A stretch of DNA of 64,000 bases from a virus: positions 1-64,000 of the IMG/VR virus record IMGVR_UViG_3300024346_000008. One strand, written 5' to 3'. The notes under the pieces were generated by a model. That model saw only the letters and a list, made by a program, of their open reading frames with translations, did no database searches and was not told where the DNA came from. This document shows, piece by piece, positions 4,477 through 13,425 of the stretch. Numbering within the stretch: the first letter of the stretch is position 1; every line of letters starts with the position of its first letter. Made by a program: the position numbers and the translations under genes.

Positions 4477-5667
4477 GTGACTAAGGTCAAGAATACGCAG
4501 GTAGAAATCGTGGTGGCTTTGAATGATGCATCGATGCCAATAAATCAGTTTGGTGATATGGTTGACTTGCCAGGGCCCAAGATTCGTCACCTGCGTAAAA
4601 ATGGTGGGTGTTATCGTATGATTACCACAAAGACGGGATCGACGCAGTTGCGTCACGCAGAAATGAGTGTATTTGATGCACTTGCAAAGAATGCAGTTCC
4701 GTTGGATGTAACCGATAATCGTTCGGACGAAGTGCATGAGGATATTGAAAAGTATCTTACCGACAGTGTTGCTCTTCGTCCTGCAAATCTTATTCTTTCC
4801 GATTTGAAGTGGAAGTATCTGATGCGCTCGGTCGTTCGTGGTAAGAACATTATGATGACAGGCCCTTCGGGATGTGGTAAGACATTGGCTGTGCAGAGTG
4901 TGGCAAAGGCACTAAATGGCCGTCCATTCTTTTACTTCAACCTTGGTGCAACGACTGACCCTCGTTCTACGCTGATTGGTAACACGCATTATAGTAAGGA
5001 AAAGGGAACCTTTGTGGCCGACGCACTGTTCTGTCGGGCCATTCAGTCAGAAAATTCCATTATTCTTATTGACGAGTTGACGCGAGCAAATCCTGATGCG
5101 TGGAATATTCTGATTACGGTTCTTGATGAGAATCAGCGATATCTTCGCATTGATGAAAAGCCGGATACGCCGACGATTAAGGTAGCAAAGGGTGTGACCT
5201 TCATTGCCACGGCAAACATTGGTAGTGAATACACCGCCACCCGTGTCCTTGACCGCGCCATGATGGACCGCTTTACGGCAATCGTTGAGATGGAACCACT
5301 GTCGGTTGAGAACGAACTGAAGCTCATTAACATGACATACCCCAATGTTCCAGAGGCAACCGCGCGAGCCATTGCAGAAATTGCTGGTAACACTCGTTCT
5401 CAAGTTCGTTCGGATGACCCAAAGGTTACTACTTCAATTTCTAGTCGTCTCACGGTAGAAATGGCCGGATTGATTTATGACGGATTTTCTCTGACCGAAG
5501 CAGCAGAAGTGTGTATCTATCCATTCTTCTCGGATGCAGGTGGGGCAGATTCGGAACGGACATACATGAAGCAGTTGGTTCAGAAGTATATTCCCAATGA
5601 TCTGAACGCTGGGAATGTGTGGGACACCGCGGTTGGCGGTAAGGCCACTTTCAACCCGACATTCTAA
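4477..5667 (+). CDS. MoxR/CobS/CbbQ-type AAA+ ATPase
   Basis: Walker A GPSGCGKT, Walker B ILIDE, ATAN sensor I, LDRAMMDRF. Confidence 0.9.
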   Translation: MTKVKNTQVEIVVALNDASMPINQFGDMVDLPGPKIRHLRKNGGCYRMITTKTGSTQLRHAEMSVFDALAKNAVPLDVTDNRSDEVHEDIEKYLTDSVALRPANLILSDLKWKYLMRSVVRGKNIMMTGPSGCGKTLAVQSVAKALNGRPFFYFNLGATTDPRSTLIGNTHYSKEKGTFVADALFCRAIQSENSIILIDELTRANPDAWNILITVLDENQRYLRIDEKPDTPTIKVAKGVTFIATANIGSEYTATRVLDRAMMDRFTAIVEMEPLSVENELKLINMTYPNVPEATARAIAEIAGNTRSQVRSDDPKVTTSISSRLTVEMAGLIYDGFSLTEAAEVCIYPFFSDAGGADSERTYMKQLVQKYIPNDLNAGNVWDTAVGGKATFNPTF

Positions 5668-5843
5668 TGGGAAAGACATATAAGGACCAGAGAAAGTGGG
5701 ATAAGCGCCGCTCGACCCGCGAAGAGGATGTTCCAAAGGATGAACGCCGGAAGAACGGCAGGCATCGTTCCGTCGAAGATGTTCCATTGGATGAAGAGCC
5801 ATTACATCCCTATGAACATTTAGATTATGAATATGATCTTTAA
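5667..5843 (+). CDS. 58-aa charged hypothetical protein
   Basis: ORF MGKTYKDQRK... overlapping the ATPase stop (TAATG). Confidence 0.55.
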   Translation: MGKTYKDQRKWDKRRSTREEDVPKDERRKNGRHRSVEDVPLDEEPLHPYEHLDYEYDL

Positions 5844-5888
5844 TCAGTAAAGTATATAGTTATTAAATGGTTATTAAAAACTGGGGGG

Positions 5889-5953
5889 TTGACAAACGAC
5901 CTACACTAGTGTATATTACAAGAGTAGTGAAGAACGACACGTTATTTGACAAC
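5889..5953 (+). promoter_or_regulatory. sigma70-type promoter plus boxA-like element of the main tRNA operon
   Basis: TTGACA-17-TATATT; GTTATTTGACAAC at 5941-5953. Confidence 0.75.
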
Positions 5954-5957
5954 TAAA

Positions 5958-6018
5958 GGGGGTTACTTTCCGAGTTCCCTCGCACAAAACTCCGACGTTT
6001 GGTTCACGTAACGAACCA
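5958..6018 (+). ncRNA. pseudoknot-plus-hairpin RNA motif, copy 1
   Basis: covaries with the copy at 9335-9396. Confidence 0.7.
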
Positions 6019-6022
6019 CTTT

Positions 6023-6055
6023 GCCACCTTCGTCTATCGGTTAGGACGTTTTTTC
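6023..6055 (+). pseudogene. 5' remnant of a tRNA-Glu
   Basis: GCCACCT-TC-GTCTATCGGTTAGGAC is a typical Glu acceptor strand and D arm; sequence then collapses. Confidence 0.7.
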
Positions 6056-6098
6056 AAAGTATCATACTATTTATAGTAAATGATTAACTGAGAAATAT

Positions 6099-6701
6099 AT
6101 GTCAAAACTAGGTGGATATAGAGAAGGTTCGGGAAGAAGTAAATCGGGATATTATAACGGTATTTACTGCGGGTCTACTTATGAACTATGTTGGGTGATA
6201 TACGCACTTGACACTCAAGTAAAATTTGATAGATTTAAAGGAATCTTACGAGGTAATAATATATCATATGTTCCTGACTTTCTCTTGAAGGATGGCAAAA
6301 CAATAATAGAATTAAAAGGATATGAATCACAAGATAGAGTTAATGAAAAAACAAAATTGGCAGAAAGTCTTGGATATACCGTGGTTGTCTTACGAAAAGA
6401 CGATTTAAAAGATGTGTTTGCGTATGTTGCTAATAAATTTGGAACTAAAAAGTTTCATACGTTATATGATGGTTATAAACCAAAATATACTTACACTTGT
6501 TCAAATTGTGGTAACTCATTGACCAGAGACAATCAGTTAAAATCAACCAATGTGTTTTGTTCAAGAGTTTGCGCAGGCCTAGGCAATAGACCGCACACGA
6601 TTTTGTCTAAGCAAAAAGTATTAGATAGGGCAAAAAGATTCTACGAAAAAAATAAAGAATTAATTAATAAAAAACGTAGAGAAAAATATAATAGTAAATA
6701 A
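6099..6701 (+). CDS. PD-(D/E)XK endonuclease (TnsA-like) with C-terminal Zn finger
   Basis: S.YE, YVPDF, IIELKG; CSNC...FCSRVC. Confidence 0.8.
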   Translation: MSKLGGYREGSGRSKSGYYNGIYCGSTYELCWVIYALDTQVKFDRFKGILRGNNISYVPDFLLKDGKTIIELKGYESQDRVNEKTKLAESLGYTVVVLRKDDLKDVFAYVANKFGTKKFHTLYDGYKPKYTYTCSNCGNSLTRDNQLKSTNVFCSRVCAGLGNRPHTILSKQKVLDRAKRFYEKNKELINKKRREKYNSK

Positions 6702-6704
6702 TAT

Positions 6705-6776
6705 GGCGCGTTCTTCTAGCGGCTAGGAAGCTTGACTTTCACTCAAGTAAGACGGGTTCGATTCCCGTACGCGCTA
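6705..6776 (+). tRNA. tRNA-Glu(TTC)
   Basis: cloverleaf; cttga-CT TTC AC-tcaag. Confidence 0.9.
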
Positions 6777-6968
6777 CTTATCCCGTCCGTTTCTATATGT
6801 GGTAGACGTTAAACAAAAACATATTCGGTACATGAACTCCGACAATATTCATGAGTGGTTCGCACCAGCTTAGTGGTGGTAAGGGTTGGGAAAAATATTG
6901 AATAGCTAACAATATTTGGGGAACCTACTAGATACTGTGGAAAGTATCTGACAATCCCCACCCACTAT

Positions 6969-7040
6969 TGGCCTATCGTATAACGGTTATTACTCTTGGC
7001 TTTGAACCAAGTAATCGGGGTTCGATTCCCTGTAGGCCTA
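6969..7040 (+). tRNA. tRNA-Gln(TTG)
   Basis: cttgg-CT TTG AA-ccaag. Confidence 0.9.
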
Positions 7041-7097
7041 TTGTAGTACGGACGCTCTACCGATTAGAGTATGATTAATTTTTCTTTGGGTATACAC

Positions 7098-7253
7098 ATG
7101 AAAGTTTTTATGGTTTTCGCAGTGATGGCAATGACAGCATGTTCCAGTGCAAAGACTGAGACGGTTGCTGATACCTCGGCAACTACCACGGTTGATAGTG
7201 CCGGAGTTATTAATGTTACAACTGATTCGGTTCGCACCGATTCCGTCAAGTAA
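7098..7253 (+). CDS. small lipoprotein
   Basis: signal peptide with lipobox MTAC; T/D/S-rich tail. Confidence 0.7.
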   Translation: MKVFMVFAVMAMTACSSAKTETVADTSATTTVDSAGVINVTTDSVRTDSVK

Positions 7254-7254
7254 A

Positions 7255-7366
7255 GCATTTCTGATGAGGCTTTAATAGCCGTAATGTTGGAGGCGGTTTG
7301 CGCGTGAGCGGTCACAAACTGTCAGACTTTGGTCGGCCGGTCGCTCGGCTATCCAACATAAAATGC
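7255..7366 (+). ncRNA. type I hammerhead ribozyme variant (GUAA in place of GAAA) with structured insert in stem III
   Basis: GCATTT-CTGATGA-GGCT/AGCC-GTA-ATGTTGGA...TCCAACAT-A-AAATGC. Confidence 0.7.
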
Positions 7367-7458
7367 AGTAATTAAATTTTACGAGGAGTTGGTCAGTCCC
7401 TCGGTGAAAGAGATCGCAACTCTAAAGACATGATCGATCACCATGTCACTGACTGTAC

Positions 7459-7528
7459 GCGGTTTTGGTGTAACAGTAGCACGGTCGGCGTCCAGCTGAA
7501 CAGTCCGGTGCAAATCCGTGAAACCGCT
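7459..7528 (+). tRNA. atypical tRNA-Gly(TCC)
   Basis: GCGGTTT/AAACCGC acceptor with U73; loop CG TCC AG; degenerate D and T arms. Confidence 0.55.
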
Positions 7529-7532
7529 CTTT

Positions 7533-7605
7533 GGGTCTTAGGTGTAAATGGGTGCACGTCTGCTTTGCAAGCAGAAGGTAATCGGTTCGATACCGATAAG
7601 ATCCA
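7533..7605 (+). tRNA. tRNA-Ala(TGC)
   Basis: G3.U70; tctgc-TT TGC AA-gcaga. Confidence 0.9.
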
Positions 7606-7621
7606 CTTGACAAAATTAATT

Positions 7622-7712
7622 GGGCGAGGTAACGTGCAGAAAGACGTTTCTGTGGGAGTCACCACACGGTAGCCCCGTGTTTAGGAAGCCGGTTCGAATC
7701 CGGCCTCGTCCA
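7622..7712 (+). ncRNA. tRNA-like RNA with Ala acceptor and branched anticodon arm
   Basis: GGGCGAG/CTCGTCC-A, perfect T arm, two hairpins instead of an anticodon loop. Confidence 0.65.
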
Positions 7713-7713
7713 C

Positions 7714-7869
7714 TTGACAAATAATGTTTGATAGGTTATATTAAAAGAGTACGATACTGACGCGGGGTAGAGAAGCAGTAACTCATTTGGCTCATAACCA
7801 AAAGATCGTGGGTGCAATTCCCACCTCCGCCATAAGATACTTGACAAATGAAGGTCACTAGGTTATATT
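7714..7869 (+). promoter_or_regulatory. two internal sigma70-type promoters (7714, 7841)
   Basis: TTGACA-17-TATATT twice, each followed by AAAAGA. Confidence 0.8.
7761..7832 (+). tRNA. tRNA-Met(CAT), initiator-like
   Basis: CGCGGGG start, C1.C72 mismatch, CT CAT AA. Confidence 0.85.
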
Positions 7870-7879
7870 AAAAGAATAC

Positions 7880-7962
7880 GCTCCTATGGTGAAATCGGTA
7901 AACACAAGAGACTTAAAATCTCTCGCTCGAAAGGCTTGTCGGTTCGATTCCGACTGGGAGCA
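7880..7962 (+). tRNA. tRNA-Leu(TAA)
   Basis: long variable arm; CT TAA AA. Confidence 0.9.
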
Positions 7963-7968
7963 CTTAAT

Positions 7969-8040
7969 GCACTGCAAGCATTAATGGTGATGCAGGAGGC
8001 TTTTAACCTTCAGAACACGGATCGTTACCGTGGCGGTGCA
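7969..8040 (+). tRNA. tRNA-Lys(TTT), atypical T loop
   Basis: ggagg-CT TTT AA-ccttc; T loop ATCGTTA. Confidence 0.8.
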
Positions 8041-8111
8041 CTGATTATATGTAAACCAGTTGTTTGACATTCTTCTACTCTACGTATATACGTACACAAA
8101 AGGAGAATTAT

Positions 8112-8537
8112 ATGAAAAAACTTCCACCAAAATATTGTTTATATTGTAATATTATGTTATCGTCTGCACATGGCCATCGTAGAGGAGCAAAATATTGTAA
8201 CAACCAATGTCAGCAAGATTATCAATACAAAGTTTATATTGATAAATGGAAGCGCAGAGAAATTGACGGGTCTAAAGGACTTGGAGTATCTGCATATGTG
8301 AAACGATATCTCAGACAAAAATATAATAATAAATGTTCTAAATGTGGATGGAGTAAACCAAATCCAATAACTGGCCAAGCAATTTTAGAAGTAGACCATA
8401 TTAACGGAAACTGGAAAGACAATTCAGAAGAAAATCTAGATCTCATTTGCTGCAATTGTCATACTCTTACAATAAATTATAAAGCTTTGAATATAGGAAA
8501 CGGAAGAAATAGTTATTTGAAATCTTTGGAAACGTAG
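8112..8537 (+). CDS. HNH homing endonuclease, free-standing
   Basis: CSKCG, LEVDHINGNWKDN, NL..ICCNCH; AGGAG SD. Confidence 0.9.
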   Translation: MKKLPPKYCLYCNIMLSSAHGHRRGAKYCNNQCQQDYQYKVYIDKWKRREIDGSKGLGVSAYVKRYLRQKYNNKCSKCGWSKPNPITGQAILEVDHINGNWKDNSEENLDLICCNCHTLTINYKALNIGNGRNSYLKSLET

Positions 8538-8545
8538 TACAATTA

Positions 8546-8620
8546 CCGCCACGAGCCAGCTAGGTTGACGGCGCTCGTCTTATATACGAGAGATGCTCGG
8601 TTCAAATCCGAGGTGGCGGA
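8546..8620 (+). tRNA. tRNA-Ile(TAT)
   Basis: CCGCCAC/GTGGCGG-A; ctcgt-CT TAT AT-acgag. Confidence 0.8.
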
Positions 8621-8622
8621 CT

Positions 8623-8745
8623 TTAAAATATTAATCATGCGTAAAAGGAACGGATAGATACTGGACGAGGGTGGCACCTCACCGAAGGGTTTAAAGTAAG
8701 AGCCAGTCCTAATGTTCTGCCACCAGCCTCTGATTAATATTTTAG
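8623..8745 (+). ncRNA. putative pseudoknotted ncRNA
   Basis: 15-bp closing stem; loop GGTGGCA pairs TGCCACC. Confidence 0.6.
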
Positions 8746-8783
8746 TTTTGAAGTACACTAAATACTAAACACTAACAGGAAAT

Positions 8784-8951
8784 ATGACTAAGACAAAAAC
8801 TCTGCAAGACGGTGAATTGGTAAAAACTTCTCTTATTGCCCTACGAGATGAATTTATTCAAAAGAGTGGCAATGGAAGATATGATATTCCATTAAATGAA
8901 GTAATCATGAAAATTAACTCTTGCTTATTTTCAAAGTATCCAGTAATTTAG
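8784..8951 (+). CDS. 55-aa hypothetical protein
   Basis: AGGA SD; preceded by 22-bp repeat. Confidence 0.55.
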   Translation: MTKTKTLQDGELVKTSLIALRDEFIQKSGNGRYDIPLNEVIMKINSCLFSKYPVI

Positions 8952-8985
8952 TTTTGAAGTACACTAAACATTAAAAAGGAATATA

Positions 8986-9201
8986 ATGACGCGAGAATTC
9001 TTGTTGAGTGGCACAGAAATAGCAGAAATGAATAAGATTAGAGAAGCTGTTAAATATTTATTTGGTCAACACTGTATTAAGCTTGAAGAACATATCTTTT
9101 CTTCTGGCGGTGGTATAGGTCCACACTGTATACACTTTCGACTTGTAACTACCGAAGATGTAGAAGTACGAAAGGATGTTACTGATTATGGTAGTTGGTA
9201 A
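8986..9201 (+). CDS. hypothetical protein
   Basis: AAGGA SD; GGGIG...DVTDYGSW; preceded by the same 22-bp repeat. Confidence 0.7.
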   Translation: MTREFLLSGTEIAEMNKIREAVKYLFGQHCIKLEEHIFSSGGGIGPHCIHFRLVTTEDVEVRKDVTDYGSW

Positions 9202-9207
9202 ATATAT

Positions 9208-9281
9208 GGTCCTATAGCTCAGTCGGTTAGAGCAGTGCACTCATAATGCAACGGTCGCGGGTTCAATTCCTGCTGGGACCA
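9208..9281 (+). tRNA. tRNA(CAT), probably Ile2
   Basis: TAGCTCAGTCGGTTAGAGC D arm; CT CAT AA. Confidence 0.85.
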
Positions 9282-9334
9282 CTTGGTGAGTAGGTAAGAT
9301 GAAGATGGCTAGCTATTTCTTATCGTCGTCACCG

Positions 9335-9396
9335 ACGAGTTTACTTTCCGAGTTCTCGTACGCAAAACTCCGACGAATGATTCACGATAAGAATCA
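9335..9396 (+). ncRNA. pseudoknot-plus-hairpin RNA motif, copy 2
   Basis: covaries with 5958-6018. Confidence 0.7.
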
Positions 9397-9400
9397 ATCT

Positions 9401-9472
9401 GCATGTGTCATATAACGGTCATTATCCAAGTTTTCCAAACTTGAGACGCGGGTTCGACTCCCGCCACATGCT
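9401..9472 (+). tRNA. tRNA-Gly(TCC)
   Basis: caagt-TT TCC AA-acttg; U73. Confidence 0.9.
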
Positions 9473-9474
9473 TT

Positions 9475-9592
9475 TGTGGTTAGCAAGAGAGCAGTAACGA
9501 CTAACAGGTCCGGAAGGCACCTAATAGGGACGAACATTGGGTGCAGGTAATTGATGGCCCACAGGCAATTACTGATTGAGTTAGTGACCACA
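9475..9592 (+). ncRNA. putative pseudoknotted ncRNA
   Basis: closing stem TGTGGTTA/TGACCACA; crossing helices GTCC/GGAC and GCACCTAAT/ATTGGGTGC. Confidence 0.6.
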
Positions 9593-9629
9593 CCTTGACA
9601 AACTACATTCAGTGTAGTATATATAAAGA

Positions 9630-9779
9630 GTTCGGTAAATCAAAGATACGAGGTGTCCTTATTCAATAGGAAATTAATTGGTGAAAGTCCAATACTGAAT
9701 TGTAATATTGCAATAATTCCGTAGGAGTGACTACCCACTATGCTTGGTAGTCGATTCGGTGAAACCCCGTCTATTGCAA
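9630..9779 (+). ncRNA. two tandem tRNA-like RNAs with TGAAA-type T loops
   Basis: 7-8-bp acceptor-like stems stacked on GG-TGAAANN-CC hairpins; promoter TTGACA-17-TATATA at 9595. Confidence 0.45.
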
Positions 9780-9873
9780 AGTTTTCCCGTGGGCATACAT
9801 GGGTGATAGGTAAATGACATTTTAATGCTCAACATGCCGATTAAAATAAAATAATGAATGGAAGTAATGGTTT

Positions 9874-9946
9874 GCTACCTTAGCTCAGATGGTAGAGCGC
9901 CTCATTTGTAATGAGGATGTCGCGGGTTCGATTCCTGTAGGTAGCT
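9874..9946 (+). tRNA. tRNA-Thr(TGT)
   Basis: cctca-TT TGT AA-tgagg. Confidence 0.9.
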
Positions 9947-9948
9947 CT

Positions 9949-10029
9949 GGTGGTGGGTGCGGGTTCGAATCCCGTTACAGCGATGCGACTTTAGCTATGC
10001 TGTATAGCTTAATGGTAGAGTGCCACATT
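9949..10029 (+). ncRNA. circularly permuted tRNA-like RNA (YrlA-like module)
   Basis: T arm precedes D arm; acceptor stem closed by a 14-nt linker. Confidence 0.75.
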
Positions 10030-10031
10030 AT

Positions 10032-10106
10032 AGGGGCGTAGCGTAGTCCGGTTATCGCGCTTCGTTTGGGACGAAGAGGTCGGGGGTTCGAATCCCTCCG
10101 CCCCTA
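10032..10106 (+). tRNA. tRNA-Pro(TGG)
   Basis: cttcg-TT TGG GA-cgaag. Confidence 0.9.
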
Positions 10107-10108
10107 CT

Positions 10109-10237
10109 TTATTAGATGTGTGTGACTAATGGGCATTCACTTGTATGTCGAAGAGGACAACGATACTAAGCAAGATAGTAAACCGCAGACCTCACAAGTA
10201 CAGAAAATCTTGTCAATTTTCTGCGTACATCTAATAA
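10109..10237 (+). ncRNA. putative structured ncRNA
   Basis: 14-bp closing stem plus internal helices. Confidence 0.55.
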
Positions 10238-10242
10238 CACTT

Positions 10243-10325
10243 TGTGTTGTAGAAGTCATAAACGATGGATAAGGTGGAGGCCATCTTCGTGGAAACACGA
10301 CTCTCTCCGACCCGTCTACAACACA
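10243..10325 (+). ncRNA. putative pseudoknotted ncRNA
   Basis: 11-bp closing stem, GAAA tetraloop, crossing GATGG/CCATC and GGAG/CTCC. Confidence 0.55.
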
Positions 10326-10328
10326 TTT

Positions 10329-10411
10329 GGAAGCGTGGCAGAAAGGCTATTGCATCAGACTTGAAATCTGACGACCGCAAGGTCATGTGGGTTCGAATCC
10401 TACCGCTTCCG
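10329..10411 (+). tRNA. tRNA-Ser(TGA)
   Basis: long variable arm; CT TGA AA; G73. Confidence 0.9.
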
Positions 10412-10428
10412 TAAATATAATTGTAACG

Positions 10429-10710
10429 AATCATAGTGAGTATTCCGGATAGACGCTATGAATAACGACTTAGGGGGGCGTTGATAGGTGTGCCTAAGCC
10501 TTAACTATCTGCGAGGATAGGTAAAGGGAATCAACGCCGTTATGATTATATGAAATAGCCGTAGAATGTCTTCCTCTATATTATAGTGGCGAGACTAGCA
10601 TGGTGTTAGGGATGGCCTCTTAACACACGTCGATGAACTGCTGTTAGACAGTCATTCTACTACTCATTGCCAGTTGAGGAAAGCGCGCGGACTGATCACC
10701 CGAACTGGTA
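10429..10710 (+). ncRNA. three adjacent putative structured ncRNAs
   Basis: closing stems at 10429/10547, 10561/10660, 10668/10710. Confidence 0.5.
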
Positions 10711-10713
10711 CAC

Positions 10714-10794
10714 GCACTTATGGTGGAATGGCAGACACGAACGCCTTAGGAGCGTTTGCTTAACAGCGTGGGGGTTCAAGTCCCTCTAAGTGCA
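10714..10794 (+). tRNA. tRNA-Leu(TAG)
   Basis: aacgc-CT TAG GA-gcgtt. Confidence 0.9.
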
Positions 10795-10797
10795 TAA

Positions 10798-10871
10798 CAG
10801 GTATGCGGCCCAGATGGCAGGGGCACCCGCCTGTGGAGCGGGGGAAGCAGGTTCGAATCCTGCCTACCTGA
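10798..10871 (+). tRNA. tRNA with His anticodon (GTG), atypical acceptor
   Basis: cccgc-CT GTG GA-gcggg; C1-G72, A73, no G-1. Confidence 0.7.
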
Positions 10872-10875
10872 TTTT

Positions 10876-11025
10876 GATGGGACGATTGCCCAAAAAACCG
10901 CTATAACGTGCTATAAGTTTCGACTTAGTTATATGTTTGAGGGGATGGCGGACTTCGAAGACGCCCATCCACGGCCTGAACCTGCCGGATTGAAGATGTG
11001 AAAAGATAAAGTCATCTATGGTTCA
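10876..11025 (+). ncRNA. putative structured ncRNA(s)
   Basis: UUCG hairpin, GGATGG/CCATCC, loop TGAACC pairing GGTTCA. Confidence 0.45.
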
Positions 11026-11030
11026 TTTAT

Positions 11031-11102
11031 TCCCAGATAGCTCAGCGGTAGAGCTAGCGGCTGTTAACCGCTCGGTCGGGGGTTCAAATCCCTCTCTGGG
11101 AG
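11031..11102 (+). tRNA. tRNA-Asn(GTT)
   Basis: agcgg-CT GTT AA-ccgct; G73. Confidence 0.9.
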
Positions 11103-11179
11103 CTAGCTGAACACTCTGTTCAGTGGTAGGACAATCTCATAAAATGTGAGATTGCGTTTTCATTTTAAAGGAGTACAAC

Positions 11180-12304
11180 ATGAAGAGAGTTTTGTTTGCA
11201 GCAGTTGCAATGCTTAGTCTCGCGGCATGTGATAATGCAGTGGTTGCCCCAACGCTAGTTGCACCGGCGGTTACAACGGTATCCATTAATGTTACAGCCG
11301 CACAGATTGAAGTTGGTCGTACTATTACCATTACCCCAACGGTTAAGGACCAGCGGGATTCAGTGATGACAGGGCGCACGGTTATCTGGTCATCATCCAA
11401 TACAGCAGTGGCTACCGTATCGAACGGCGTGGTCACGGGCGTATCAAAAGGTCAGGTAACAATTCAGGCCACGGTTGAAGGAAAGATTGCTTCGGCAACA
11501 ATCTTTGTGACCGACGCGTCAGTTGCCACGGTTACATTGAACGCCCTTGTTCCATCCACATTTTTTGTAGGACAGTCAGTACAGGCCACCGCAACATCAC
11601 GCGATATTGCGAACAATGTGTTGACTAACTACGCAGTGGTATGGACTTCCAGCAATCCTGCCGTCGCTAGTGTTGGTCCAGCCGGATTGATTACCGCAGT
11701 ATCGGCCGGTGTGTCTACGATTACGGCAACCACGGGCGGCAAGTCGGCAACCTTGGTGGTTACGACCTCGTTAGTTCCTGTGTCTACCGTGACCGTGGCG
11801 GCATTGAAGCCTGCACAGATTGGTCGCAGTATTCAGTTGTCGAATGTCTTGAAGAATGCAAGTGGAGCAACATTAACTACGGATCAGCGCATTCTTTCGT
11901 GGGCTAGTACGGACAATACCATCGCTACCGTATCGTCCACCGGTGTTCTTACGGGCATTTCCGCCGGCACGACTATCGTTACATGTGTCGTTGAAGGTAA
12001 GGTTGGGTTGCTCAATGTGACCGTGAGTGAAACGGGTATTGAGTATCTTAGAGTACTTCCCGATAGTGCAAATATCAAAGTGGGTAACACGCGGCAGTTC
12101 TTCGTACAGGCGTTCGATGTAGATAGTGTAATGTTGACTACAGCAGCATTGAACGGTCGGTTACCTACATGGACTTCTTCGGATTTGTCGAAGGCGGTTA
12201 TTACTACTGATGGGTTGGTAACAGCAGTATCGGTTGGTACCTCCGACATTATTGCAACCATTGGTACAGTAAGTAAGTCAGCAAAGGCAGTCATCGTTCC
12301 GTAA
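11180..12304 (+). CDS. lipoprotein with four Ig-like (Big_2) repeats
   Basis: lipobox LAAC; four W.SS...VATV..G.VT.VS.G repeats. Confidence 0.9.
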   Translation: MKRVLFAAVAMLSLAACDNAVVAPTLVAPAVTTVSINVTAAQIEVGRTITITPTVKDQRDSVMTGRTVIWSSSNTAVATVSNGVVTGVSKGQVTIQATVEGKIASATIFVTDASVATVTLNALVPSTFFVGQSVQATATSRDIANNVLTNYAVVWTSSNPAVASVGPAGLITAVSAGVSTITATTGGKSATLVVTTSLVPVSTVTVAALKPAQIGRSIQLSNVLKNASGATLTTDQRILSWASTDNTIATVSSTGVLTGISAGTTIVTCVVEGKVGLLNVTVSETGIEYLRVLPDSANIKVGNTRQFFVQAFDVDSVMLTTAALNGRLPTWTSSDLSKAVITTDGLVTAVSVGTSDIIATIGTVSKSAKAVIVP

Positions 12305-12319
12305 GGACGATGGCTGGTT

Positions 12320-12391
12320 GGTCCCATAGTTCATCGGTTAGAATAACGCACTGTCACTGCGTAGAGACGAGTTCGATTCTCGTTGGGACCG
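12320..12391 (+). tRNA. tRNA-Asp(GTC)
   Basis: acgca-CT GTC AC-tgcgt; G73. Confidence 0.9.
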
Positions 12392-12418
12392 TTTACATAA
12401 TGCAAGGATATAAAAACT

Positions 12419-12667
12419 ATGCGTGAATCGTTAACGAGAGTAGAAGAGTTGCCATCAGGTAAGCGAGTGTTCTATATTGATGTTGGTAATATACCAACTG
12501 ATCAAGTTGAGGAGTATATGAAGCGTATGAGGATCGCCCTTCATGAACCAGATTCATATGTACTCCCAGTACGGTCGCACAACCGGACATTTGATTTGGA
12601 ACAACACTTGATGACAATAGTAATTTTTATACAAGTATTTATATTGGGATTAACATTAATTAAATAA
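12419..12667 (+). CDS. small membrane protein containing a T4 gp20-type portal segment
   Basis: RVFYIDVGNIP...EEYM and YVLPVR; C-terminal hydrophobic helix. Confidence 0.65.
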   Translation: MRESLTRVEELPSGKRVFYIDVGNIPTDQVEEYMKRMRIALHEPDSYVLPVRSHNRTFDLEQHLMTIVIFIQVFILGLTLIK

Positions 12668-12730
12668 AGATTGGCTTGATGTGTCCTTAAGTGAAGGGAA
12701 CTGGTAGACTAGACTTCACAACATCATTTC

Positions 12731-12803
12731 GGGCAATTAGCTCAGCGGTTAGAGTCCTCGGTTTACATCCGAGTTGTCGGGGGTTCGAATCCCTCATTGC
12801 CCA
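12731..12803 (+). tRNA. tRNA-Val(TAC)
   Basis: ctcgg-TT TAC AT-ccgag. Confidence 0.9.
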
Positions 12804-12819
12804 CTTACCTTTTAACCAA

Positions 12820-13425
12820 ATGTATATGACAAGTTTCTTACAGAAGTTACATCGTACAGTATATCCTCACAATACGCTTCACATTCCAACCCTTAAACGC
12901 GGCCAATGGTATGATGTCGATACCAAAATGTTTGAAGCTATGTTTACGCTATTATGTGAGTATGTCGAGAACGAATGCGCACATATGGAATTAATGGATA
13001 CTAAAAAATATAGCAGATGGACACGGTTGCAACATCGATGGATTCCGAGAAAGTTTCGCAAAGCTCTTTCCCGTGAACTTGGATTAGCAAATTTAGATTG
13101 GATGGCAAATGTTGAAAATGCGCCTCAACATCAAGTCGATATGAGTCAAATGACCAAAGAGCTATATCTATGGTACAACGATGAATATCCACAGATGAAA
13201 GACCCCTATGAAACCGTTATTGATCCACAGTTCTTATTTGTTGATGAAAACAATAATCCCACCAATGATTTTGCCTCACCAACTTCAGACCGTGCAATGA
13301 ATCGTTTCCATCCCGATTACCGTGATATGTTGGATACCTTAAATGCAATGGAAGAAGCCCAGCAAAAAACAATCGATATGAAGTTAGAAGACCTTTTAGC
13401 CGTTCGACGGAGTTTGTGGACTTAA
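12820..13425 (+). CDS. hypothetical protein
   Basis: ORF; start moved downstream of tRNA-Val. Confidence 0.75.
   Translation: MYMTSFLQKLHRTVYPHNTLHIPTLKRGQWYDVDTKMFEAMFTLLCEYVENECAHMELMDTKKYSRWTRLQHRWIPRKFRKALSRELGLANLDWMANVENAPQHQVDMSQMTKELYLWYNDEYPQMKDPYETVIDPQFLFVDENNNPTNDFASPTSDRAMNRFHPDYRDMLDTLNAMEEAQQKTIDMKLEDLLAVRRSLWT

Follow-up and report, generated by a model that had tools for sequence, protein, structure and literature searches.

What fills the DNA between the genes of a phage tRNA array, and is any of it RNA in its own right? Clusters of transfer RNA (tRNA) genes in phages are usually read as a supply of tRNAs for codon usage or against host defence, with no attention paid to the intervening DNA. 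We analysed such an array in virus record IMGVR_UViG_3300024346_000008, a metagenome-assembled freshwater phage genome of 163,934 nt with an estimated completeness of ~90%. The first 64 kb of this record are called the window here, and all features given below by window coordinates lie on its plus strand. ARAGORN and Rfam concordantly placed 15 tRNA genes at 6705-11103, all on the plus strand, and five further tRNA genes nearby. This confirmed the tRNA array reported by a first-pass annotation, which had also described 14 intervals around these genes as distinct structured non-coding RNAs. We labelled the intervals by their start positions (A 5958, B 6788, D 7255, E 7382, F 7622, G 8623, H 9335, I 9475, J 9630, K 9949, L 10109, M 10243, N 10429 and O 10876) and added a further element, E2, at 7459-7530.

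The locus is probably a multi-promoter tRNA operon into which non-tRNA RNA modules of diverse kinds have been inserted, between one tRNA and the next. Judging by how their sequences vary among phages, elements B, G, L, A/H and the hammerhead-shaped D appear to be conserved structured RNAs that fall below every Rfam threshold. Three others, E2 (a divergent tRNA-Gly), F (an alanine-identity mimic) and K (permuted and YrlA-like), are tRNA derivatives. No evidence backs elements I, M and O, which are lineage-specific inserts. The annotated "distinct structured RNAs" therefore survive in part, as several putative conserved non-coding RNAs on the tRNA strand, with at least three of the set being tRNA derivatives.

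A covarying RNA precedes tRNA-Gln

Relatives of the array were gathered as ~250 loci (~3 Mb) from IMG/VR and Joint Genome Institute (JGI) metagenomes by way of flanking proteins, motif scans and assemblies with a downstream immunoglobulin (Ig)-domain protein. The useful ones were L006, L011-13, L115, L111, L128, L213, L227, L239/L248, L251 and L252/L253. L111 is the same locus as L120 and L122, and L111/L120 is the closest relative of the array as a whole.

Element B is the best supported of the RNAs. It is predicted to be a structured RNA of ~185 nt with seven helices (6780-6969, annotated previously as 6788-6967) and abuts the 5' end of tRNA-Gln(UUG). A covariance model (R1) built from six sequences outside the window recovered the window copy at an E value of 2.5e-10. 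Across 13 distinct sequences, 92.4% of the pair cells held standard pairs, compared to 41-53% when the partners were slid by one to three columns. Double changes were found in 28 of the 38 pairs, and the covariation score was reached by none of 500 shuffles. The pair table also contains 37 G.U cells; on the opposite strand they would turn into A.C mismatches, so they fit an RNA read from the tRNA strand. Outside the helices, unpaired GACGUUAAA and AAGGUU are nearly invariant, and a possible pseudoknot would join an upstream CGUC to GACG, both of which are invariant. B ends at the first base of tRNA-Gln(UUG) and has tRNA-Glu or tRNA-Met upstream, the exception being L111, where a tRNA-Gly is wedged between. 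The covariation support for B is on par with that of many curated families, and its link to tRNA-Gln is strict.

Two observations were made alongside. By eye, we saw no conserved complementarity between B and tRNA-Gln, and a T-box-like pairing of the two was rejected. In L012, a tRNA-Gln-like sequence with a damaged T arm lies past the B copy (11895-11984); it is uncalled by ARAGORN and is likely a pseudo-tRNA.

Closing stems and hairpins change in pairs in further elements

Element G (8623-8745) begins 2 nt past tRNA-Ile(UAU) and is predicted to form a compact RNA with a 13-bp closing stem round a conserved core. In its homologs in L128 and L213 the core is ~90-95% identical and the flanks are unalignable. 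The closing stem has been swapped there yet is still complementary (AAAAUAUUAAUCA/UGAUUAAUAUUUU in the window, AAGAUGUCA/UGACAUCUU in L128/L213), and an inner pair is altered on both sides, from ACUGG/CCAGU to AUUGG/CCAAU. Element L (10109-10237), which begins 2 nt past tRNA-Pro, combines a closing stem of ~12 bp with a conserved 8-bp hairpin (CAGAAAAU/AUUUUCUG). It has homologs in L120, L115, L006 and L227; covariation was read from four aligned phages, with the L227 homolog outside the alignment. Here the closing stem goes from AGAUGU/ACAUCU to AAAUGU/ACAUUU, and the hairpin carries one double change.

Elements A (5958-6018) and H (9335-9396) are paralogous copies of one leader motif with homologs in L120, L128, L213 and L219. 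In each, a variable stem closes an invariant 15-nt loop (UUUACUUUCCGAGUU), which is followed by AAACUCCGACG and then by a 5-bp hairpin with an ACGNNAC-type loop. Both stems covary, the hairpin stem being GGUUC/GAACC, GAUUC/GAAUC, GGCUC/GAGCC or GCCCC/GAGGC. Every copy, two in the window and four in other phages, lies just 5' of tRNA-Glu or tRNA-Gly(UCC): H ends 6 nt 5' of tRNA-Gly(UCC), and A sits just 5' of a tRNA-Glu 5' remnant (6024-6050). A relaxed scan for the motif returned 16 stretches, of which four were true members by context (three already in hand and one new) and the rest were chance matches in coding DNA.

Element D (7255-7366) is predicted to be a three-way junction with the layout of a hammerhead ribozyme: CUGAUGA, stem II, GUAA in place of GAAA, stem III with a branched insert, AUA, and stem I. 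The stems read GCAUUU/AAAUGC (I), GGC/GCC (II) and UGUUGGA/UCCAACA followed by UA (III), and stems II and III each keep their pairing through one double change (L120, L252). Like a hammerhead, D has three stems in register, CUGAUGA, A14 and A15.1-U16.1, and its cleavage position is occupied by A, giving a U-H cleavage site. Unlike one, it carries a ~60-nt branched insert in stem III and departs from the catalytic core (C3 U4 G5 A6 N7 G8 A9, G12 A13 A14). In the second block the window reads GUA, whereas L120 and L252 read GCA (GCAA where the window has GUAA), so that position 13 is never A. Since U and C at this position can each pair with G8, the catalytic core has probably been replaced by a plain helix. 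The Rfam hammerhead models gave no match to D at E <= 5.

Element E (7382-7445), which comprises short hairpins and a palindrome, has conserved counterparts in L120 and L252, in which the predicted long hairpin is not kept. Palindromes in two elements differ among phages yet remain palindromic, with UGAUCGAUCA in the window and CUGAUCAG in relatives for E (7430-7440), and UGAUCA versus UCAUGA for N (10690-10700). Such sites could be RNA-RNA kissing contacts or protein-binding sites on DNA.

Covariation, which the first-pass annotation had proposed as a check, was thus found for A/H, B, D, G and L. Elements F and N showed sequence conservation without covariation, the fold proposed for E was not upheld, and the check did not apply to I, K, M and O, which have no usable homolog. 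As for the crossing helices that had been annotated in at least seven intervals, the candidate pseudoknot pairs that we examined in A/H (5958/9335), B (6788-6967) and G (8623-8745) consist of invariant bases, and one G homolog breaks a pair.

These patterns bear on a very different explanation, in which the spacers are DNA-level or peptide features such as promoters, protein-binding or recombination sites, or micro open reading frames (ORFs). Some spacers do contain real promoters, the palindromes of E and N hold their symmetry as they change, and five ORFs lie between the array tRNAs. However, B shows paired substitutions and many G.U pairs, which are workable on one strand only, and the lengths of the indels in B, L and D are not divisible by three. 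In addition, none of the 14 intervals holds a tRNA-free ORF of at least 30 aa, in line with the annotation's view that they contain no credible ORF. We therefore regard DNA-level or peptide features as a very improbable account of the spacers.

Three elements resemble tRNAs

Element F (7622-7712) is a predicted tRNA-like RNA of 91 nt that starts 16 nt past tRNA-Ala. The acceptor stem is 7 bp long and includes G3.U70, the base at position 73 is A, and the T arm is canonical; two hairpins take the place of the anticodon arm. F is 98.5-99.5% identical in L111, L239/L248 and L252, compared to 77-89% for the neighbouring tRNAs, which suggests either very strong selection or recent spread. Its 3' part gives weak, partial matches to the acceptor and T arm of transfer-messenger RNA (tmRNA), at 16.6-19.4 bits against thresholds of 47 and 84, short of membership in these families, and ARAGORN calls no tmRNA. 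With tmRNA and alanine-identity mimics F shares G3.U70, A73, the canonical T arm and a non-canonical body; it differs from tmRNA in having neither a tag reading frame nor a pseudoknot array, and in being only 91 nt long.

Element K (9949-10029) fills the gap between tRNA-Thr and tRNA-Pro and is predicted to be a circularly permuted tRNA-like module, with a T arm, a loop-closed acceptor stem and a D arm in that order and no anticodon loop. It aligned to positions 23-88 of the Rfam YrlA model (RF02553) at 30.6 bits, below the gathering score of 69 required for membership as a full YrlA RNA. Within the tRNA-like domain, all four helices aligned with standard pairs (cmscan). When 926 T arms were scanned for a loop-closed acceptor stem plus a D arm, four unique matches were obtained, of which K is one. 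Another, in L173, spans the full YrlA model at 39.4 bits against the same gathering score. This permuted tRNA-like RNA (L173:17181-17295) has an acceptor stem closed by a UUCG loop, and the next ~80 nt give a weak tRNA-Sec match.

Published YrlA genes lie within ~4 kb of Ro60, and YrlA-like RNAs adjoining Ro60 have been described in 22 phages (PMC4201824). K shares with YrlA the permuted order of T arm, loop-closed acceptor stem and D arm. It differs in that the long stem and the GNCGAA-type Ro-binding motif are missing, the flanking tRNA-Thr and tRNA-Pro leaving room for a stem of ~4 bp, and in that its genome has no Ro60/TROVE gene. A search of the whole 164-kb record for a TROVE/Ro gene found none and matched the control genomes, and a search for T4-type RNA ligase 1 found no match in the genome and likewise none in the control genomes, which leaves this negative without weight. 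K has no sequence homolog, and L120, L006, L012 and L251 all lack it.

Both ARAGORN and the first-pass annotation missed element E2 (7459-7530), a divergent gene resembling tRNA-Gly(UCC). It matched the full Rfam tRNA model (RF00005) at 26.6 bits, under the membership threshold of 29, and its oddities include G33 for U33, a UGCAAAU T loop and mismatches in two stems. Homologs are present in L115, L213 and L219, and in L239 and L227 their counterparts are called tRNA-Gly(UCC) genes following tRNA-Gln. Decayed tRNAs were rejected as a general explanation of the spacers: Rfam at E <= 5 gave no tRNA-like match beyond K, and E2 surfaces only if searched alone.

Modules differ between related arrays

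In L120, the spacing is 15 nt from tRNA-Thr to tRNA-Pro, 33 nt from tRNA-Ser to tRNA-Leu and 13 nt from tRNA-His to tRNA-Asn, and L is followed directly by tRNA-Ser. Elements K, M, N and O thus differ between the two arrays as clean indels. Since all four are also missing in L006, L012 and L115, gain in the window lineage is the simpler reading. The content of a slot varies as well. The slot between tRNA-Met and tRNA-Gly is occupied by H in the window and by 94 nt of unrelated sequence in L120, and the slot between tRNA-His and tRNA-Asn measures 159 nt, 13 nt or 133 nt, or holds a 3.2-kb gene. In other relatives the same tRNAs are packed 2-10 nt apart. We clustered 157 unique spacers of 40-420 nt from related arrays and obtained 111 clusters, of which 83 were singletons. 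Conserved modules keep to their tRNA: B stays with tRNA-Gln even where the upstream tRNA is tRNA-Met and not tRNA-Glu, and N stays with tRNA-Leu(UAG) in the window and in L248. From these comparisons, the modules are cassettes in slots between conserved tRNAs, each with its own history and gained or lost independently. The proposal of one polycistronic system finds no support here, because L111/L120 has no K, M, N or O and each conserved module follows one tRNA.

The 3.2-kb insert belongs to L251 (1096-4242), where a gene for a 1048-aa TonB-dependent-receptor-like protein (CarboxypepD_reg, OMP beta-barrel) separates tRNA-His from tRNA-Asn in an array that otherwise looks phage-like; either the gene is cargo or the assembly is chimeric.

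Outside the gathered relatives, a blastn search of the whole region against GenBank phages matched the tRNAs only, and four single spacers searched in the same way had no match. Judged by the flanking AAA-ATPase gene, L003-5 and L028/29 are the nearest relatives (90-97% protein identity), yet no tRNA array lies downstream of it in them, which makes this gene a poor guide to relatives of the array. A metagenome scan anchored on it gained no close array relative, and an IMG/VR scan with the Ig-domain (Big_2) gene returned two contigs only.

Gene insertion has also reshaped the array. Element A precedes only the 5' remnant of a tRNA-Glu because a nuclease-like ORF of 200 aa (6099-6701; weak DUF559 and zinc-finger Pfam matches, not an RNA element) has been inserted together with a duplicated tRNA-Glu 5' half. 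The intact tRNA-Glu (6705-6777) begins 3 nt past the stop codon of this ORF. L111 represents the uninterrupted state, with one tRNA-Glu and no nuclease ORF, and window positions 5842-6051 and 6704-6959 map to overlapping L111 DNA. The ORF is present at 85% identity in L239 and L248. The same layout of remnant, ORF and intact tRNA was seen in L251 (40-430), as the start of a tRNA-Thr, a 56-aa ORF and a complete tRNA-Thr.

Could the modules then be selfish or hitch-hiking cassettes, that is, debris of homing-endonuclease traffic, tRNA-gene recombination and decayed tRNAs that brings the phage no benefit? The two endonuclease ORFs in the array, one of them flanked by the duplicated tRNA-Glu half, would be expected in that case, as would the clean presence or absence of K, M, N and O, the near-identity of F and N across otherwise diverged phages, the plainly tRNA-derived make-up of E2 and K and the many singleton spacer clusters (83 of 111). 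Debris would not, however, hold the seven helices of B through double changes over 13 sequences, nor keep the G closing stem complementary while its sequence is replaced, and no terminal repeat family is common to the modules. We consider it quite unlikely that the modules are debris of this kind. Mobile elements with terminal inverted repeats were likewise rejected, as the closing stems differ among modules and covary rather than stay conserved within a family.

A further alternative is that the spacers act only in cis, as processing or folding elements that insulate the pre-tRNAs, guide RNase P, RNase E or RNase III, or slow exonucleases, and are then degraded. Most elements do abut a tRNA end. 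Read by their coordinates, 10 of the 14 intervals begin or end within 7 nt of one, as had been claimed for the intervals generally, and the other four do not. B, N and A/H each occur solely as the 5' leader of a given tRNA, and closing stems that join the ends are what one expects of a processing substrate. Against this, related arrays process the same tRNAs with spacers of 2-10 nt, and both B (185 nt, seven helices, invariant unpaired motifs) and the ~90-95% identical G core are over-constrained for an insulator hairpin. A purely cis-acting role is in our view rather unlikely, and we favour inserted RNA modules.

Promoters, genes and remaining elements of the array

A promoter-like site opens the array at 5889-5917 (TTGACA, 17 nt, TATATT) and matches the sigma-70 consensus at 11 of 12 positions, as do two further sites at 7714-7742 and 7841-7869. 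Look-alikes were noted by eye at 8064 and 9595. A repeat family, D4, takes in the promoter sites at 5889, 7714, 7841 and 9595, and promoter and tRNA seem to form one repeat unit that moves jointly. The -35 box CTTGACAAA (7606-7614, 7712-7720 and 7839-7847) begins at or a few nucleotides from the 3' end of tRNA-Ala, F and tRNA-Met, respectively. Directly 3' of tRNA-Asn, a terminator-like hairpin with a T run (11132-11154) is the sole convincing site of its kind in the array.

The five ORFs between the array elements lie at 6099-6701, 7071-7253, 8064-8537, 8784-8951 and 8986-9201. Besides the nuclease-like ORF described above, two were characterised and are not RNA elements. The 60-aa ORF at 7071-7253, in the spacer between tRNA-Gln and tRNA-Ala, encodes a putative lipoprotein (signal peptide and lipobox by eye) and is conserved in L111/L120 and L052. 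The ORF at 8064-8537, between tRNA-Lys and tRNA-Ile, encodes an HNH endonuclease of 157 aa with Pfam and PHROGs matches. The remaining two, at 8784-8951 and 8986-9201, are small genes from the ORF listing. Upstream of each lies one copy of a 32-nt direct repeat that is 91% identical (8738-8769 and 8944-8975) and is probably a shared translation-initiation or promoter region.

Element N (10441-10713, annotated previously as 10429-10710) is a conserved non-coding block of ~270 nt that abuts the 5' end of tRNA-Leu(UAG). L248 carries it at 94% identity (E = 3e-73), likewise abutting tRNA-Leu(UAG), and L251 has only its 5' ~150 nt. The differences are few; none is compensatory and some break predicted pairs. 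A group I intron was considered for N and had no Rfam support. Upstream of N in L248 (150-235) lies a chimeric pseudo-tRNA with a 5' part like tRNA-Leu(UAG), a 3' part like tRNA-Ser(UGA) and unpaired acceptor strands, which suggests recombination between type II tRNAs.

Element J (9630-9779) is a leader downstream of the 9595 promoter. Over its first ~88 nt it shares 96.6% identity with the 5' untranslated region of a ~200-aa gene in L120 that is absent from the window. A likeness of GGUGAAAGUCC in J to a cobalamin riboswitch or RNase P had no Rfam support. Element I (9475-9592) is a predicted fold after tRNA-Gly with no match in the ~3 Mb of related loci or in GenBank phages. Element M (10243-10325) is a predicted fold with an 11-bp closing stem and has no homolog. 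Element O (10876-11025) occupies the spacer between tRNA-His and tRNA-Asn; its fold is unsupported, and only its ends resemble a spacer in L252, with no full-length homolog found.

Folding energy and the case for released RNAs

We compared the minimum free energy of each interval, at its original coordinates, with that of dinucleotide shuffles. Five of the 14 reached z <= -2, namely G (-3.47), M (-3.12), F (-3.06), D (-2.45) and I (-2.28), and L came close at -1.98. The other eight ranged from E (-0.06) to J (-1.04), among them A (-0.7), B (-0.4), O (-0.4) and N (-0.34). As these coordinates had been picked to close stems, we also folded the whole spacers without this bias. Only 3 of 11 had z <= -2, set against 8.9% of 90 random coding windows from the same genome, which leaves the claim that almost every spacer is a self-contained fold unsupported. 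The element G+C content of 0.37-0.59, compared to 0.40 for the genome, is a weak hint. Since the best-supported RNA, B, has a z of only -0.4, the folding-energy test is insensitive and says little either way. The Rfam check proposed with the annotation gave a uniform result, with no spacer reaching the gathering score of any family. GOLLD, ROOL and the other tRNA-associated motifs of Rfam 15 had no match at E <= 5 over 5600-13000 or at E <= 10 in single spacers.

The promoters at 5889, 7714 and 7841, the lone terminator-like site and the position of most elements against a tRNA fit co-transcription and release by tRNA processing. In such a scheme the modules would be transcribed together with the tRNAs, and an RNase P cut at the 5' end of the next tRNA plus 3' trimming of the preceding one would free them as discrete small RNAs. 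Closing stems may then protect or stabilise the freed ends. As a guess, the tRNA-like modules might engage host enzymes that bind tRNA, with alanyl-tRNA synthetase or tmRNA partners for F and tRNA-modifying or tRNA-cutting enzymes for K and E2, and the invariant unpaired bases of B, G and L might be contact sites for a specific protein or ligand.

Several points weigh against the reading of the spacers as inserted RNA modules. Spacers are not told apart from coding DNA by folding energy. The alignment of B was fitted to its model, which favours structure, although the margin is large. The covariation in G, L, D and A/H comes from only two to six distinct sequences and few independent events, and the conservation of N and F, seen in sequence only, could also be explained by recent horizontal transfer. 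Relatives with 2-10 nt spacing indicate that the modules are dispensable for the working of the array. The genome searches for Ro/TROVE and for a CCA-adding enzyme were both negative, and no partner protein was identified. Finally, we infer co-transcription, excision and stability from the sequence alone.

Any decoy or inhibitor role for the modules is purely conjectural. We give little credence to the wider idea that, in this group of freshwater phages, tRNA arrays are used generally to express and process small RNAs drawn from an exchangeable pool, each delivered by host enzymes of tRNA maturation. Several of these RNAs (F, K, B) would block host tRNA-directed defences or translation factors or serve as decoys for them, with cassette turnover reflecting an arms race.

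The inter-tRNA gaps nevertheless appear to hold at least four to five conserved structured RNA families outside Rfam. They also hold two candidate tRNA mimics, the near-invariant F with its alanine identity pair and the YrlA-type permuted K in a Ro-less genome. The modules are candidates for RNAs that exploit host tRNA processing for their release, and they may show how arrays evolve by cassette exchange. If they are only processing aids or debris, the analysis is still a useful annotation of what fills a phage tRNA array.

Comparison with known systems

Phage T4 encodes the stable RNAs C and D (species 1 and 2) in its tRNA gene cluster, a region that also contains the gene for the homing endonuclease SegB. 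These RNAs are produced from tRNA transcripts by tRNA-processing enzymes, and to our knowledge their function is still unknown. The elements described here are likewise encoded between tRNA genes, on the same strand and in the same putative transcription units, with homing endonuclease genes embedded among them. They differ from T4 RNAs C and D in that no link by sequence or Rfam was found, and in that the modules of the present array are far more numerous, fall into several kinds and have several promoters among them.

GOLLD and ROOL RNAs often occur near the tRNA islands of phages and prophages (PMC12286853). They too are phage structured RNAs in or beside tRNA arrays, and GOLLD can carry tRNAs inside. 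GOLLD and ROOL measure 500-800 nt and form multimeric cages, whereas the modules here are 60-280 nt. In conclusion, several of the elements are new RNA families or new variants within a known kind of locus.

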